A stretch of 64,000 bases of DNA from Chloroflexota bacterium (lineage in GTDB: Bacteria; Chloroflexota; Dormibacteria; CF-121), in the NCBI GenBank assembly GCA_005880615.1, contig VBID01000114.1:93324-157323 (forward strand), in the 5' to 3' direction. The notes under the pieces were generated by a model, which saw nothing but the letters and a program-made list of their open reading frames with translations, did not search any database and was not told the DNA's origin. The translations under genes and the position numbers were made by a program. Shown here one piece after another: positions 13,185 through 62,384 of the stretch (within the stretch, counting starts at the first letter, position 1; each line of letters starts with the position of its first letter).

Positions 13185-13208
13185 TCTCTCTATAAGAGGC
13201 TAGGCTCT

Positions 13209-13404
13209 AAGCCCGGGTCCATCGATCGGACGACGCAGATCGGGATGCGGGGCGTGCCGAGCCGAAGGAGGCGACGAGCACGGGAGGGAGCGCATCCGTT
13301 GATGCGTGACCGACCGCGCACAGGAGACGACGCCCGGAGCCCGGCCTCGGGCTCAGGCCGCATCCGCGCCCAAGATGCTAGTTCGATTCGATGGACCCGG
13401 GCTT
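13209..13404 (-). mobile_element. MITE-like 196-bp element with 17-bp perfect TIRs (copy A, inverted relative to copy B)
   Basis: AAGCCCGGGTCCATCGA at 13209-13225 and its reverse complement at 13388-13404. The core is about 90% identical to 45480-45615 on the opposite strand. Confidence 0.5.
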
Positions 13405-13436
13405 ATAATCGGCGTCACCTCCGGAGGTGATGTCCG

Positions 13437-18852: not shown

Positions 18853-21212
18853 TGCTGATCTCGGCTGGCTGGCTGCGCGAGTACGTGGACGTGCCGGCTG
18901 ATACCGCCGCGTTGGCCGAGCGCCTCACCCTGGCCGGGATGGAGGTGGAGCGCATCCAGGAACCGTTTGTGGACGTGGTGGTGGCCGAGGTGGTCGAACT
19001 TCGGCCGCACCCGAACGCCACCAAGCTGCAGCTGGCGCGGGTGAAGACGGGGGACGCCAGCATCGAGGTGGTCACCGGCGCGACCAACCTTTCAAAGGGG
19101 GACCGGGTCCCGCTGGCTCGCGCCGGTGCGCGCCTCGGCAACCGGACCATCAGCGCCGAGGTCTTTCGCGGCGTCCGCTCGGAGGGCATGCTGTGCTCAG
19201 CCATTGAGCTCGGCCTGGGCGAGGATGCCGACGGCATCATGGTCCTGGACCGGAAGGCCCCGCTGGGAGCGGACCTCCGCACCCTGTTCCCGATCGGTCC
19301 GGTGCTGGACATGGAGATCAAGTCCAACCGTCCGGACCTGCTAGCCCACCTCGGGATCGCGCGGGAAATCGCCGCCCTCTACGGCACGGCGCTGCGACCG
19401 CCCGCCTCGCGCCCGGGCAGGGCCCTCGCGGCCGGACCGGCGTCGATCACGATTGAGGATGCGGAAGGCTGCCGCCGCTTCGTCGGCCAGCTGATGCACG
19501 GCGTCAAGGTCGGCCCGTCCCCTAGCTGGATGCAGGCTCGGCTCCGCGCGGCCGGGGTGCGACCCATCAGCAACGTGGTGGACATCACCAACTACGTGAT
19601 GCTGGAGAGCGGCCAGCCCATGCACGCTTTCGACTACGATCGCCTGGCGGGCGGCCGACTGGTGGTGCGCCGAGCCAGGGCCGGGGAGCGGCTCGTCTGC
19701 CTCGATGGGAAGACCCGCGAGCTGACTCCTGACTACCTGGTGGTGGCAGACGCCGAGCGGGCCCAGGCCCTGGCCGGCATCATTGGCGGCGCGGACAGTG
19801 CCGTCCAGGCCGCCACCACGGCCGTCCTCCTGGAAGCAGCCACCTGGGAGCCGCGGCGGATCCGCGCCACGTCTCGGGCGCTCGGCCTACGTTCCGAGGC
19901 CTCGGCTCGGTTCGAACGGGGGCTGAGCCCGGCCCTCAGCAAGCCGGCCGTGGATCGCGCCGCCGCGCTGCTGGCCGAGATCGCCTCGGGCACCGAGGTC
20001 CAGGCCGTCGACGTCTACCCCGTCCCCCTGGTCCAGCGGGCGATCACGGTGCGGAGCGCCGAGCTGGACCGAATCCTGGGCGTCAGCGTCCCCAAGCGGC
20101 AGGCCTCGTCCATCCTGGAGCGGCTTGAGTTCGCAGTGAAATCCACCACCGACGGCCTGCGGGCCACCCCGCCGGCCTTTCGGCTGGACTGCTCGATCCC
20201 CGAAGACATTGCGGAAGAGGTCGGCCGCATCTACGGCTACGATCGCGTGCCGAGCACGCTGCCCGGCGAGCGAAGGCCGGTGATCGACGTCTACCAACTC
20301 GCCGACGCCGACGACCGCGTCAGGGAACTCCTGGCCGGCCTTGGCTTCAGTGAGACCGTCACCTACAGCTTCGCGGAGGCCCATACCGCGACCCTCGTCC
20401 GTCTCCCATCGGCACCCGCCGATGCGCTGACCGTCAGGAATCCCATCCTTGAACGCCGCGACACCTTGCGGGTCAGCCTGCTTTCCGGGCTGCTGGCGAA
20501 TCTTGCCCTCAACGCTCGCCAGGATCAACCCGACACGCGGCTGTTCGAACTGGCGACCGCATTCTGGGGCCGAGCGGGCGATGCCTGGCCGGAGGAGCCA
20601 CGGCTGCTGGCCGTTGCCGCTCATGTGAGCAGTGGCCAGCCGGAGGCGGCGGCCCAGGCGTTACGCAGGCTGGAAGCCGGATTACGCCTGCTCCGGCAGC
20701 GAATCGGGCGCCAGCCCCTGGCTGTCCGGCAGGCCGCGGTGGCAGGCTTCCACCAGGGGCGCTCGGGGGAGATCATCCGCGAGGGCGCCGTCATCGGCGC
20801 GGTCGGCGAGGTCCATCCCGGCGTCCTGCGCACGCTGGAGCTGCCCGGCCGGGCGGTGGTCGCGGAGGTCCTGTTCGACCCCTTCGTCGAATACGGCCTG
20901 GCTGTCCCCCAGGCCTCGCCGCTGGCCCGCTTTCCGGACATCCGCCGCGATCTGACCGTGATCGTTCCGCGCCAGGCAGCCAGTAACGAGCTGCTGCAAG
21001 TTATGCACGAGCACGGCGGTTCTACGTTAAGGGAGATTGCCATGCTCAGCGAATACGAGGGGCCACAACTCCCGTGGGGGACCCGTAGCATCTCGTTCCG
21101 CCTCGTCTACCAGGCTGCCGATCGCACCCTGACGGCGGCCGAGGTCTCAGAGCGCCATGAGGCCATCATCACGGCGCTTCGGCGGCGCTTCGGCGCGGAT
21201 GTGAGGGCCTGA
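18852..21212 (+). CDS. pheT: Phenylalanyl-tRNA synthetase beta subunit
   Basis: MLISAGWLREYV N-terminus, B3/B4 and FDX-ACB regions. GTG overlaps the pheS stop. Confidence 0.9.
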   Translation: MLISAGWLREYVDVPADTAALAERLTLAGMEVERIQEPFVDVVVAEVVELRPHPNATKLQLARVKTGDASIEVVTGATNLSKGDRVPLARAGARLGNRTISAEVFRGVRSEGMLCSAIELGLGEDADGIMVLDRKAPLGADLRTLFPIGPVLDMEIKSNRPDLLAHLGIAREIAALYGTALRPPASRPGRALAAGPASITIEDAEGCRRFVGQLMHGVKVGPSPSWMQARLRAAGVRPISNVVDITNYVMLESGQPMHAFDYDRLAGGRLVVRRARAGERLVCLDGKTRELTPDYLVVADAERAQALAGIIGGADSAVQAATTAVLLEAATWEPRRIRATSRALGLRSEASARFERGLSPALSKPAVDRAAALLAEIASGTEVQAVDVYPVPLVQRAITVRSAELDRILGVSVPKRQASSILERLEFAVKSTTDGLRATPPAFRLDCSIPEDIAEEVGRIYGYDRVPSTLPGERRPVIDVYQLADADDRVRELLAGLGFSETVTYSFAEAHTATLVRLPSAPADALTVRNPILERRDTLRVSLLSGLLANLALNARQDQPDTRLFELATAFWGRAGDAWPEEPRLLAVAAHVSSGQPEAAAQALRRLEAGLRLLRQRIGRQPLAVRQAAVAGFHQGRSGEIIREGAVIGAVGEVHPGVLRTLELPGRAVVAEVLFDPFVEYGLAVPQASPLARFPDIRRDLTVIVPRQAASNELLQVMHEHGGSTLREIAMLSEYEGPQLPWGTRSISFRLVYQAADRTLTAAEVSERHEAIITALRRRFGADVRA

Positions 21213-35579: not shown

Positions 35580-36454
35580 TGAATATCGTCGGGCGGCGGA
35601 ACTGGTACTTCGGGCTGTCGTTGCTGATCATCCTGCCCGGGATTGTCTCCATGGCCGTGCTCGGCTTCCGCCTCGGGATCGACTTCCAGGGCGGCAGCCA
35701 GCTCAACCTGGTCTTCGCCAACCCGGTACAGGCGAGCGCCATCCAGCGCGAGGTGGACACGTTCAGCGTCGACGGGACGGTTCAGCAGACCACGGCCAAT
35801 GGCGTGCTGATCACGACCAAGCCGCTGGGCCAGGCCACCCAGCAGAACCTCGAGAACGACCTGGCTGCCAAGTTTGGGGCGATCGACCCGAGCCGGTCCG
35901 GAACGCAGTTGGTCGGGCCCACGGTCGCCCGGGAACTCGTGATCGGCGCTGGAGGCCTGATTGCGAGTGCCTCGCTGTTGATCATGATCTACCTCCGCGT
36001 GCGGTTCGCCTCCCTTCGGTTCGCCGTGTGCGCCATCCTGGCCCTGCTGCACGACGTCTTCGTGCTCACCGGGGTCTACTCGATCCTGGGCCGGGTCTTC
36101 AATCTGCCCATCGGCGAAATCAACACCCTGTTCGTGACCGCGGCGCTGACCGTCATCGGCTTTTCCGTCCATGACACGATCGTCATCTTCGACCGGATCC
36201 GCGAGAACCTGAAGGTGGCCAGCCGGCTCAACTTCGAGCAGACGGTCAACCTGAGCATCATCCAGTCGCTGGCCCGGTCCCTGAACACGTCCATGACCGT
36301 CGTCTTCGTCCTGGTGGCGCTGTTCCTGATCAGCCCGCCCAACATCAAGGGCTTCACTCTGGCCCTGCTGATCGGGATCGTCAGCGGGACGTACTCGTCG
36401 ATCTTCAACGCCAGCCCACTGCTGGTGGTGTGGCGCCGGTTGGCCCAGCGCTAG
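35579..36454 (+). CDS. secF: Protein translocase subunit SecF
   Basis: MNIVGRRNWYFGLSLLIILPG. The stop of secD overlaps this start. Confidence 0.9.
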   Translation: MNIVGRRNWYFGLSLLIILPGIVSMAVLGFRLGIDFQGGSQLNLVFANPVQASAIQREVDTFSVDGTVQQTTANGVLITTKPLGQATQQNLENDLAAKFGAIDPSRSGTQLVGPTVARELVIGAGGLIASASLLIMIYLRVRFASLRFAVCAILALLHDVFVLTGVYSILGRVFNLPIGEINTLFVTAALTVIGFSVHDTIVIFDRIRENLKVASRLNFEQTVNLSIIQSLARSLNTSMTVVFVLVALFLISPPNIKGFTLALLIGIVSGTYSSIFNASPLLVVWRRLAQR

Positions 36455-36575
36455 CGCTCACCCCCACCCCGACCCTCCCCCTGAGGGGGCGGGCGAGAAG
36501 CCTGGGATGGCGGCGCCCGGCCCAGCGGTAGGGCTCACCCCACCCCGACCCTCCCATGAGGGGGTGGGAGAGAAC
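36455..36575 (+). repeat. Two tandem copies (about 45 bp each, 80 bp apart) of a GC-rich hairpin repeat
   Basis: GCTCACCCCCACCCCGACCCTCCCCCTGAGGGGGCGGGCGAGAAG at 36455-36500 and GCTCACCCCACCCCGACCCTCCCATGAGGGGGTGGGAGAGAAC at 36532-36575. Each half folds as CCCTCCC/GGGAGGG around a TGA loop. Confidence 0.5.
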
Positions 36576-36603
36576 CGCTCACAATGGGTATAAGGAGGAG
36601 GCC

Positions 36604-36876
36604 ATGGCAAAGACTAAGACCAAAGTCTGTACCCACCTCGACCAGATTCGGGACCTGCCGCCGCGCACACCGGAAGGCTGCGAGGAATGCCTGAAGACCG
36701 GAGACGAGTGGCTTCATCTGCGGCTCTGCCGCGAGTGTGGCCACGTGGGCTGTTGCGACGATTCGAAGAACAAGCACGCGACCAAGCACTTCCAGAAGAC
36801 GAAACACCCGATCATCCGCTCGTTCGAGCCGGGGGAGGACTGGAGCTGGTGCTTTGTCGATGAGGTGTACGTCTGA
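36604..36876 (+). CDS. UBP-type zinc-finger (ZnF-UBP) domain protein
   Basis: ATG 36604 preceded by AAGGAGGAGG. Full ZnF-UBP cysteine/histidine pattern: CTHL...CEEC...LRLCRECGHVGCCD...HATKHFQKTKHP. Confidence 0.7.
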   Translation: MAKTKTKVCTHLDQIRDLPPRTPEGCEECLKTGDEWLHLRLCRECGHVGCCDDSKNKHATKHFQKTKHPIIRSFEPGEDWSWCFVDEVYV

Positions 36877-41293: not shown

Positions 41294-41300
41294 GAGACAC

Positions 41301-41328
41301 CCTTCCCTCCCCCCTGAAGCGAGGGGAA
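41301..41328 (+). repeat. GC-rich hairpin (divergent member of the CCCTCCC...GGGAGGG family) in the rbfA leader
   Basis: CCTTCCCTCCCCCCTGAAGCGAGGGGAA folds as CCCCT-gaagcg-AGGGG. Confidence 0.35.
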
Positions 41329-41390
41329 ATGTTGGCGCGGCGATGTCCTGAGCTTAGGTGGGAGCGCAATGGGGGAGAATAGGTCCCGTG

Positions 41391-45450: not shown

Positions 45451-45638
45451 GCCCGAACCCACAGAAACGAACTTGCATCTCGGATGCGGCCTGAGCCCGA
45501 GGCCGGGCTCCGAGCGTCGTCTCCTGTGCGCGCTCGGTCACGCATCGACGGATGCGCTCCCTCGCCTGCTCGTCGCCTCCTTCGGCTCGGCGCGCCCCGC
45601 ATCTCAATCTGCTTCGTCCGCTCGGTGGATCCGGGCTG
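45450..45638 (+). mobile_element. MITE-like element copy B (about 190 bp, imperfect TIRs)
   Basis: It begins at the DAGK stop codon. The core is about 90% identical to the reverse complement of 13227-13387. Termini AGCCCGAACCCACAG ... CGGTGGATCCGGGCTGG are inverted. Internal direct repeats CGTCGTCTCC and CGTCGCCTCC. Central palindrome CGCATCGACGGATGCG. Confidence 0.5.
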
Positions 45639-53524: not shown

Positions 53525-53543
53525 CTCAACGTCGGTTGACGAA

Positions 53544-53579
53544 GGGGCTTCGCCCGCGGGGCGAGGCCCTTTTTGTTTG
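53544..53579 (+). terminator. Intrinsic terminator
   Basis: GGGGCTTCGCCC-gcg-GGGCGAGGCCC followed by TTTTTGTTT, immediately after the 53524 stop. Confidence 0.65.
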
Positions 53580-53593
53580 GCCGTGAGATCGGC

Positions 53594-53654
53594 TGAGGGG
53601 GAGCCCGGGCCAGATGATCACCCCCTCTGTGACCTTCCCTTGAGCGGGAGGGAA
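53594..53654 (+). repeat. Two GC-rich hairpins (family members) in the leader of the truncated LLM gene
   Basis: GAGGGGGAG...CACCCCCTC at 53595-53627 and TTCCCT-tgagcgg-GAGGGAA at 53634-53654, followed by GGGGGGAGGGAG. Confidence 0.35.
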
Positions 53655-53693
53655 ATCCTAAAGGGGGGAGGGAGTTATAAGCTCTTGGGGGCT

Positions 53694-61802: not shown

Positions 61803-61850
61803 CACGCAGCTGTCATGGAGGCGGGGTACCATGATCGGCGTGTTAATCGA

Positions 61851-61890
61851 CACCCCCACCCTGACCCTCTCCCTGAGGGGGAGGGAGAAG
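61851..61890 (+). repeat. GC-rich hairpin repeat (same family as 36455-36575) overlapping the yajQ SD
   Basis: CACCCCCACCCTGACCCTCTCCCTGAGGGGGAGGGAGAAG. The CTCTCCC/GGGGGAG stem has a TGA loop. The 3' arm GGGAGGGAG is the SD for ATG 61893. Confidence 0.5.
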
Positions 61891-61892
61891 TC

Positions 61893-62384
61893 ATGACGCA
61901 GGAGTATTCGTTCGACGTGGTGTCCCAGTACGACCGGCAGGAGCTGGTGAACGCCGTGAACCAGGCCCAGCGGGAGGTGACCACCCGCTACGACTTCAAG
62001 GACGCCGGCGCCTCCATCGCGCTGGGCGACAGCGAACTGGTGCTGGACGGGCCGTCGGAGATGAAGCTCAAGGCCATGGTCGATGTGCTGCAGAGCAAGC
62101 TCGTCCGGCGCAACCTGTCACTCAAGATCCTGAAGATGGGTCCGGTCGAGCCGGCGGCCAAGGGGACGGTCCGGCAGCGGATCGAGCTCCAGGCCGGCAT
62201 CACCGATGAGCTGGCCCGCACCCTGGTCAAACAGATCAAAACGGTCAGTCCCAAGGTCCAGCCCCGGATCCAGGGTGACGCGATTCGCGTCTCCAGCCGG
62301 GAGAAGGACCTGCTGCAGAAGGTCATCCAGTCATTGCGCGAGACCGACGCCCCGGTGCCGCTGCAGTTCATCAACTACCGGTGA
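61893..62384 (+). CDS. yajQ: YajQ-family (UPF0234) nucleotide-binding protein
   Basis: MTQEYSFDVVSQYDRQELVNAVNQAQREVTTRYDFKD. The ORF-track extension back to 61815 runs through the repeat and is rejected. Confidence 0.8.
   Translation: MTQEYSFDVVSQYDRQELVNAVNQAQREVTTRYDFKDAGASIALGDSELVLDGPSEMKLKAMVDVLQSKLVRRNLSLKILKMGPVEPAAKGTVRQRIELQAGITDELARTLVKQIKTVSPKVQPRIQGDAIRVSSREKDLLQKVIQSLRETDAPVPLQFINYR

Follow-up and report, generated by a model that had tools for sequence, protein, structure and literature searches.

What are the short GC-rich repeats that lie between secF and the neighboring zf-UBP gene in a 64,000-nt stretch of contig VBID01000114.1 (assembly GCA_005880615.1, Chloroflexota bacterium; hereafter, the window), and do they control the genes that follow them? 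The original prediction, which drew attention to a tandem pair of hairpin repeats at 36455-36575 and to relatives elsewhere in the window, had offered two readings: an intergenic repeat resembling the repetitive extragenic palindromic (REP) elements, or a family of hairpins pairing an anti-Shine-Dalgarno arm with the Shine-Dalgarno (SD) sequence to control translation. Our analysis indicated that the window copies very probably belong to the BoxC/PIT/TMECO/HPGQ family and represent a structure-forming, tolerated intergenic repeat that probably promotes slippage. The first reading was thus right in kind, the repeat being dispersed, intergenic and structure-forming, but the family is BoxC and not classical REP.

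Three significant copies were detected in the window with a profile built from 51 copies of other genomes, the E-values referring to the window only. Copy 1 (36459-36500, minus strand; E = 9e-11) begins 4 nt downstream of the secF stop codon (36452-36454), and copy 2 (36537-36577, minus strand; E = 2e-7), a degraded duplicate of copy 1, lies in the same secF/zf-UBP spacer (36455-36604). Copy 3 (61851-61892, minus strand; E = 2e-13), the best preserved, occupies the spacer between ftsK and yajQ. Two ~42-nt copies at secF and a third at 61851 were therefore real, as originally claimed, and the consensus proposed for them was accurate; the core pattern was matched twice in the window against 0.01 matches expected. 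All three copies carry the C-rich strand on the plus strand, and their minus strand reads in general CCCTCNCCC-N3-GGGNGAGGG-N3-GGGNGNGGG. Copy 1 reads CACCCCCACCC-CGA-CCCTCCCCC-TGA-GGGGGCGGG-CGAGAAG on the plus strand and CCCGCCCCC-TCA-GGGGGAGGG-TCG-GGGTGGGGG on the G-rich, purine-motif minus strand, with one Watson-Crick mismatch (a G of the C block versus an A of the middle block) and 9/9 compatible base triads. Copy 2 (plus strand, CACCCC-ACCC-CGA-CCCTC-CCA-TGA-GGGGGTGGG-AGAGAAC) has undergone two 1-nt deletions and one substitution. Copy 3 reads CACCCCCACCC-TGA-CCCTCTCCC-TGA-GGGGGAGGG-AGAAGTC on the plus strand, followed by the yajQ ATG at 61893, and CCCTCCCCC-TCA-GGGAGAGGG-TCA-GGGTGGGGG on the minus strand; 8/9 of its triads are compatible, the mismatched one being due to an A at middle position 4.

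Read along the G-rich strand, the element is built of three 9-nt blocks. A C block is followed by a G block complementary to it, and the third block is a mirror image of this G block. Four G3 tracts arranged as GGG-NGN-GGG-N3-GGG-NGN-GGG were invariant in every family member. The family form on the other strand is CCCTCCCCC-TCA-GGGGGAGGG-TCA-GGGTGGGGG, and the variant that we call type A, common to many non-proteobacterial genomes, has the G-strand sequence CCCTCCCCCTCAGGGGGAGGGTCAGGGTGGGGG; copy 3 is a point-mutated type-A element. Searching the literature with the literal sequence gave no match, and the family was reached by keyword. Work on BoxC and PIT reportedly comprises that of Bachellier et al. 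in the 1990s and that of Hoyne and Maher in 2000 and 2002. BoxC and PIT (potential intrastrand triplex) are earlier names of the element later defined as TMECO by the pattern 5'-CCCTCNCCC-N3-6-GGGNGAGGG-N3-GGGNGAGGG-3', with one mismatched triplet allowed (Holder 2015, PMC4666352), and the HPG1/HPG2 'G-quadruplex-hairpin-duplex switch' of Kaplan 2016 (PMC5100583) is the same element under another name. The TRIP1 repeats of E. coli (PMC10888264) proved unrelated despite their name.

Pattern matching and direct alignment to E. coli copies both placed the window elements in this family. A single mismatch separated copy 3 from the TMECO pattern (61853-61885, minus strand) and two separated copy 1 from it (36461-36493, minus strand), where no chance match was expected in the window at up to three mismatches; copy 2 remained unmatched because of its two 1-nt deletions. 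Strict matches were found in related loci and in E. coli. When compared with complete E. coli genomes, copy 3 gave 43-nt alignments with 84% identity at 20085 places in 4478/5426 genomes (median 5 per genome), and a copy read directly from the deoB-deoD spacer was CCCTCTCCC-TGA-GGGAGAGGG-TCG-GGGTGAGGG.

Copies beyond the window, which the original prediction required, were found in metagenomes and, in a reference scan with one genome per species, at no fewer than 111 loci. Among the matches listed, the 35-nt motif CACCCCCACCCTGACCCTCCCCCTGAGGGGGAGGG was near-identical in Dehalococcoidia, Limnocylindria, Dormibacterota, Eisenbacteria, Acidobacteriota, Nitrospirota, Actinomycetota, alpha-, beta- and gamma-Proteobacteria, and, among delta-proteobacterial records, Desulfuromonadaceae, Geobacter and a Bdellovibrio-like metagenome-assembled genome (MAG). 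Near-identical copies were thus present in more than 10 phylum-level groups, the taxon labels being record titles and some MAGs possibly mis-binned. The YajQ protein of the window is 99% identical to that of a MAG labelled Candidatus Eisenbacteria and 80% identical to that of a Dormibacterota MAG, with the ftsK-yajQ-cinA-recA synteny kept; judged from these comparisons, the host is probably related to Dormibacterota. The documented host range of BoxC/TMECO is thereby extended well beyond Proteobacteria, from E. coli to Chloroflexota and Dormibacterota.

Two local elaborations of the element were seen during the survey. On the Dehalococcoidia chromosome OY761449 (locus L027, 6898-7100), four copies stand head-to-tail with a 53-55-nt period and the constant spacer AATGAAAGGGAGAAGGATT, and at least 10 copies lie within 8 kb, so that some Dehalococcoidia appear very rich in the element. 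Rhizobiales carry a variant in which a small extra hairpin replaces the second loop, GACCCTCCCC-TTGA-GGGGGAGGG-TCGG(AGCGNAGCT)CCG-GGGTGGGGT, often beside a second short palindrome, ACCTCCCCCTTGAGGGGGGAGGTCGC (loci L015, L029, L035, L061, L069, L072, L079 and others; for example, L015 4269-4310).

To what structure does this conservation point? Folding energies of the window copies were not significant (z = -0.3, -1.8 and -0.3) and uninformative, because shuffled sequences with C runs and G runs fold equally well; this line of evidence was dropped. The predicted hairpin was nevertheless supported by compensatory T-A, C-G and G-C variants in the Watson-Crick arm among the metagenome copies. Rfam 15 returned no relevant match in the window, in the local region (E <= 10) or in 12 element-rich loci, yielding only tRNA and signal recognition particle RNA.

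The third block offered a sharper test. The reference sample was too uniform for covariation analysis (13 block triples, Fisher p = 0.24), and the metagenomes were scanned with the pattern CCCNCNCCCNNNGGGNGNGGGNNNGGGNGNGGG, in which the informative positions were left free and the others fixed. After exclusion of poly-C/poly-G junctions (~28 of 162 pattern matches), 134 elements on 106 contigs with 18 distinct block combinations were left. The excluded junctions (loci L135-L254, for example L145 and L163) often lay at contig ends and are probably sequencing or assembly artefacts. Middle position 4 and third-block position 6, which face each other in the antiparallel register, were A/A in 10 combinations, G/G in 7, G/A in 1 and A/G in 0 (Fisher p = 2.5e-4). 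An A at middle position 6 faced A or T in 12/13 combinations, and a G there faced G in 2/3; same-index control comparisons across the 18 combinations showed no association. This covariation obeys the purine-motif triad rules (G.G-C, A.A-T and T.A-T). It favors a triplex register, because a G-quadruplex (G4) leaves the loop bases free and a plain hairpin needs no third block. A pyrimidine-motif triplex of the C-rich strand in parallel register was also considered and rejected, fitting 83% versus 95% for the antiparallel register.

The mirror covariation supports, at the level of sequence comparison, the published fold-back triplex model. Circular dichroism (CD) and nuclear magnetic resonance (NMR) showed that the G-rich strand of the E. 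coli element, as single-stranded DNA, forms a hairpin with a reverse-Hoogsteen third strand, with a Tm of 70-82 C; the 18 imino signals seen by NMR of the oligonucleotides were assigned to the triplex and not to G4 (PMC4666352). The triad-rule covariation adds an evolutionary argument to a model that has hitherto had only in vitro support. It also points to DNA as the level of action, because purine-motif triplexes do not form in RNA according to Semerad and Maher (1994), as that work is cited in PMC4666352.

Gene context was examined in two samples, the 73 full elements of the reference genomes and the 134 of the independent metagenome scan, using a simple caller of our own based on third-codon-position GC content (GC3) and open reading frames (ORFs); expected counts were derived from spacer lengths in the same loci. 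The elements were intergenic, as they are in the secF/zf-UBP and ftsK/yajQ spacers of the window. Among the 127 classifiable copies of the pooled samples, only 16 were in divergent spacers versus ~31 expected (p = 9e-4), and 31 were in convergent ones. This distribution does not fit a 5'-leader element, and E. coli HPG1 is likewise found in 6 convergent spacers versus 1 divergent (PMC5100583). In co-directional spacers (pooled, n = 80), the sense strand was G-rich in 54 cases and C-rich in 26 (p = 0.002), so the window copies, with the C-rich strand in the sense, represent the minority orientation. Neither sample showed any clustering at start codons.

The strand bias, together with the invariant G tracts, bears on the proposal that the element is a switch between G4 and hairpin acting on transcription initiation or termination (Kaplan 2016, PMC5100583), which we regard as improbable. 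In this view a G4 made from the four G3 tracts would compete with the hairpin of the C block. Four G3 tracts are present in every family member, CD gave evidence that the E. coli motifs adopt G4 as well as hairpin folds (PMC5100583), archaeal analogues pass from one to another of triplex, hairpin and G4 according to K+ (PMC8044849), and the 2:1 excess places the G-rich strand as the non-template strand. However, the mirror-image covariation of G-block positions 4 and 6 falls where G4 loops would be unconstrained, the imino signals were assigned to the triplex, and the G-rich strand is the template for all three window copies. Moreover, the E. coli members had neither promoter nor terminator activity in the experiments of Hoyne and Maher (2002), insofar as these are cited in PMC4666352. 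At the window elements, a promoter scan was negative, and a terminator scan found no GC stem followed by a T/U run, the tails being AGAGAA on one strand and TGA/TG on the other.

The anti-SD/SD reading supposes that the C arm sequesters the SD sequence and releases it on a signal. The original prediction had relied on the location of all copies on the plus strand just upstream of a start codon. This location carried little information, because ~90% of the genes in this 67% GC window are on the plus strand and any spacer precedes a plus-strand gene. Only copy 3 abuts a start codon and supplies an SD sequence: its GGAGGG (61880-61885) ends 7 nt before the yajQ ATG, can act as SD, and pairs with the C arm in the RNA fold predicted for it (-18 kcal/mol). 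In a relative with 95% identical YajQ the G arm is retained, equally spaced from a GTG start. Local occlusion of the SD at yajQ is therefore possible, and the fold model would make it an incidental SD-occluding hairpin. As an explanation of the family, translational control by such hairpins is highly improbable. Copy 1 lies 4 nt after a stop codon, and copy 2 ends 27 nt upstream of a zf-UBP start codon (36605) that has an SD of its own, AAGGAGGAGG. The G arm is 3' on the mRNA only in the minority orientation (26/80), convergent spacers hold 31/127 copies, and relatives of yajQ do without the element. The third block, conserved and covarying, is not needed by an SD hairpin, and the lack of promoter or terminator activity in E. 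coli, as far as it is cited in PMC4666352, also stands against this reading. The family-wide claim thus failed on the very ground that the original prediction had named, since no start-codon bias appeared among the 73 and 134 elements, and both orientations occurred. SD-sequestering leader hairpins such as RNA thermometers and translational operators resemble the element only at yajQ, where the C arm can pair with the SD; they differ in their steady position at the start codon, whereas here the orientation is mostly opposite, a third block is present, and orthologous leaders lack the element.

Orthologous ftsK-yajQ spacers were then compared. The spacer element was identical in a relative with 100% identical YajQ, and in the 95% relative with the GTG start it had lost 9 nt, so that the first block now runs straight into the C arm. 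It was absent from the site in an 86% relative, which has two degenerate copies ~100 nt upstream, and absent from the ftsK-yajQ spacer of an 87% relative and of the 80% Dormibacterota MAG. On this evidence the yajQ element is a recent, unstable arrival. Two further rearrangements were observed here. In the 86% relative (locus L128, 1276-1470), a ~170-nt block holding both copies has on either side a 13-nt direct repeat that comes from the 3' end of ftsK (AGATTCGTGACGC), and in locus L130 (1-290) a ~170-nt segment including the first yajQ codons is tandemly duplicated; the ftsK-yajQ spacer is structurally unstable even without the element.

The tandem pair at secF told a similar story. Copies 1 and 2 share 20/22 upstream flank bases, GGCCCAGCG(C/G)TAG(C/G)GCTCA, including the secF stop codon. 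The flank of unit 1 (36442-36458, plus strand) consists of the last 13 nt of secF with its TAG stop plus CGCT, and that of unit 2 (36519-36536, plus strand) is a duplicated, now non-coding secF 3' end (GGCCCAGCGCTAGCGCTCA versus GGCCCAGCGGTAGGGCTCA when aligned). Because the secF 3' end is repeated, the pair arose by one ~78 bp local duplication and not by two insertions; it is probably a slippage product, and its two copies are not independent. Among contigs with identical SecF, some were 99.9% identical to the window and carried the pair. Two others, with flanking genes 94-98% identical, showed a homology break at exactly 36465-36579 and kept only CTCACCCCC joined to GAGAAG, the ends of copy 1 minus its central 29 nt. 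In this sister strain, an unrelated sequence of ~177 nt (L114 1585-1761; L115 9411-9588) replaces the 113-nt segment 36466-36578. The remnant in the ~98% identical strain, the 9-nt deletion, the duplication and the absence from distant relatives together amount to rapid local turnover of the element.

The position of copy 1, starting 4 nt after the secF stop, raises the question of a role at transcript 3' ends, where the 9-bp GC hairpin would block 3'-to-5' exonucleases or punctuate operons in the manner of E. coli REPs. Reference-sample copies tended to lie a few to tens of nucleotides after stop codons and lay rarely between divergent genes, which agrees with such a role. However, the stop-proximal tendency of the first sample (24/36) was not replicated in the metagenome sample (20/43; pooled 44/79, p = 0.37) and was rejected. 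The conserved third block would remain unexplained, purine-motif triplexes reportedly do not form in RNA, and the sister strain does without the secF copies. We therefore consider a 3'-end function of the RNA improbable.

Classical REP elements or miniature inverted-repeat transposable elements (MITEs), mobilized in trans by a REP-associated tyrosine transposase (RAYT) or another transposase, would account for a short, GC-rich, palindrome-containing, intergenic and multi-copy sequence whose presence is polymorphic between strains, and the 13-nt direct repeat flanking the two-copy block of the 86% relative could be read in the same way. Like REPs and the bacterial interspersed mosaic elements built of them (BIMEs), such sequences often follow stop codons, vary between strains and sometimes occur in tandem. 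This origin is nonetheless unlikely here. The element has three blocks where REPs have two arms, and its 5' flank is (T)CA or (G)ACA in place of the conserved tetranucleotide GTAG. Its sequence is common to many phyla, whereas REPs are lineage-specific, being confined to a species or to one RAYT. Clustering of 770 ORFs from the 111 loci listed gave no recurrent neighbor protein family. No cognate RAYT was found, as tblastn with E. coli RayT returned nothing below E = 0.1 in the window and in 1.04 Mb of element-bearing loci, a search of loci and not of whole genomes. Holder et al. (PMC4666352) reported no association with transposons, phages or plasmids. Phage carriage was rejected in our search as well: the only 6 matching viral contigs all held the rhizobial variant or chance hairpins, and none held the window-type element. 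Finally, the flank repeats (13 nt and 17 nt) resemble slippage duplications and not target-site duplications of fixed length.

We return to the reading of the element as a tolerated, slippage-promoting BoxC/TMECO repeat, for which the following mechanism may be proposed. The element, which is short, non-coding and non-autonomous, would become transiently single-stranded during replication or transcription and fold, G4 being an alternative fold of its G-rich strand. The folded form could stall polymerases and promote slippage or template switching, and such slippage would produce the ~78-bp secF duplication, the internal deletions of 29 nt and 9 nt, and the gains and losses at yajQ. The element would then persist in those spacers where little harm results, tolerated as a repeat that is largely selfish or neutral and whose effects on neighboring genes are incidental, as where the yajQ G arm happens to supply an SD. 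In E. coli, element-bearing loci are more rearranged between strains than control loci (PMC4666352).

Several points weigh against this interpretation. The triplex, whose formation is known only for naked single-stranded oligonucleotides, went undetected when E. coli was footprinted in vivo with dimethyl sulfate (PMC4666352). No window copy matches a perfect triplex, each of the three having a mismatch or indels. The 18 block combinations are not phylogenetically independent, and the search pattern fixed the other positions; instability was inferred from a handful of strain comparisons without matched control spacers, and gene context depends on a crude GC3/ORF caller. The 2:1 orientation bias hints at strand-specific selection, which a purely neutral model does not predict. 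The proposed mechanism also leaves unexplained both the near-identity of a 35-nt non-coding sequence across phyla and its spread to new loci. A bolder view has a small chance of being right, in which the element is one unit that spreads horizontally or is maintained by convergence, is actively selected in vivo for its fold-back triplex across more than 10 phyla, and is perhaps serviced or seeded by a conserved trans-acting activity. Were this true, mirror covariation together with the 2:1 bias in strand would constitute the first comparative evidence of an intrastrand DNA triplex as a selected structure. For annotation, the consequence of our results is that these repeats should not be labelled as regulators of secF, zf-UBP or yajQ, nor as riboswitch-like leaders.

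The degenerate relatives that the original prediction placed at 53594-53654 and 41301-41328 fared less well than the three copies described above. The former, a borderline but probable decayed copy (53617-53660, minus strand; plus strand TCACCCCCTC-TGTGA-CCTTCCC-TTGAGC-GGGAGGG-AAAT), was matched in its hairpin part only (53635-53656, E = 0.054). The latter, a possible decayed copy directly 3' of a stop codon (41296-41333, minus strand; plus strand GACACCC-TT-CCCTCCCCCC-TGAAGC-GAGGGG-AAATG), was not significant (41305-41317, E = 3.7). The block order of both is correct by eye, and they may be decayed copies, which the statistics do not support. Just upstream of the first candidate, at 53541-53580, a terminator-like GC hairpin followed by TTTTTGTTT was noticed by eye only.

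The mechanical ORF list ran both downstream genes 5' through the elements (ATG at 36556 and ATG at 61815); the true starts are at 36605 (zf-UBP, 90 aa) and 61893 (YajQ, 163 aa) according to the source-contig gene calls and Pfam coverage. The window also contains a second, unrelated repeat, a 157-nt segment present twice in inverted orientation at 92% identity (13208-13406 and 45481-45637) and sharing 91.5% identity over 130 nt with a Limnocylindria MAG (locus L050, 7073-7202). Perfect 18-bp terminal inverted repeats, TAAGCCCGGGTCCATCGA and TCGATGGACCCGGGCTTA, enclose the copy at 13208-13406, which on that account resembles a ~200-nt MITE. The two copies are both intergenic, with an RNA fold z-score of -2.4 and no Rfam match.

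Three further known systems may be compared with the element. The intergenic repeats of Methanomicrobiaceae, putative quadruplex sequences with a C-tract (PMC8044849), are likewise multi-copy, place a G4-capable run beside a complementary C-tract, and interconvert in vitro between hairpin, antiparallel triplex and G4. They differ in having the C-tract 3' of the G run, where it is 5' both here and in E. coli, in their block sequences and in their archaeal hosts. HPG1/HPG2 of Kaplan share the four G tracts after a complementary C-rich tract, the invariable flanking of ORFs, and the many convergent and few divergent locations. Their conservation was reported to fall with distance from E. coli, whereas here near-identical copies occur in more than 10 phylum-level groups, and the G4 switching and transcriptional regulation that Kaplan proposed fit the covariation less well than does the triplex register. 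For the BoxC/PIT/TMECO elements of E. coli and other Proteobacteria, the published census covers 262 proteobacterial genomes, while the host here is a non-proteobacterial, uncultured soil bacterium with 67% GC. The E. coli types have TTA or CCG as the second loop, in contrast to the G5AG3 and G3TG5 blocks and TCA loops of type A, and all three window copies are imperfect. The two nevertheless agree in their blocks, the 9-nt block length, the loops of 3-6 and 3 nt and the block sequences, as well as in their intergenic location in both orientations beside unrelated genes and in being locally deleted, mutated or duplicated from one close strain to another.

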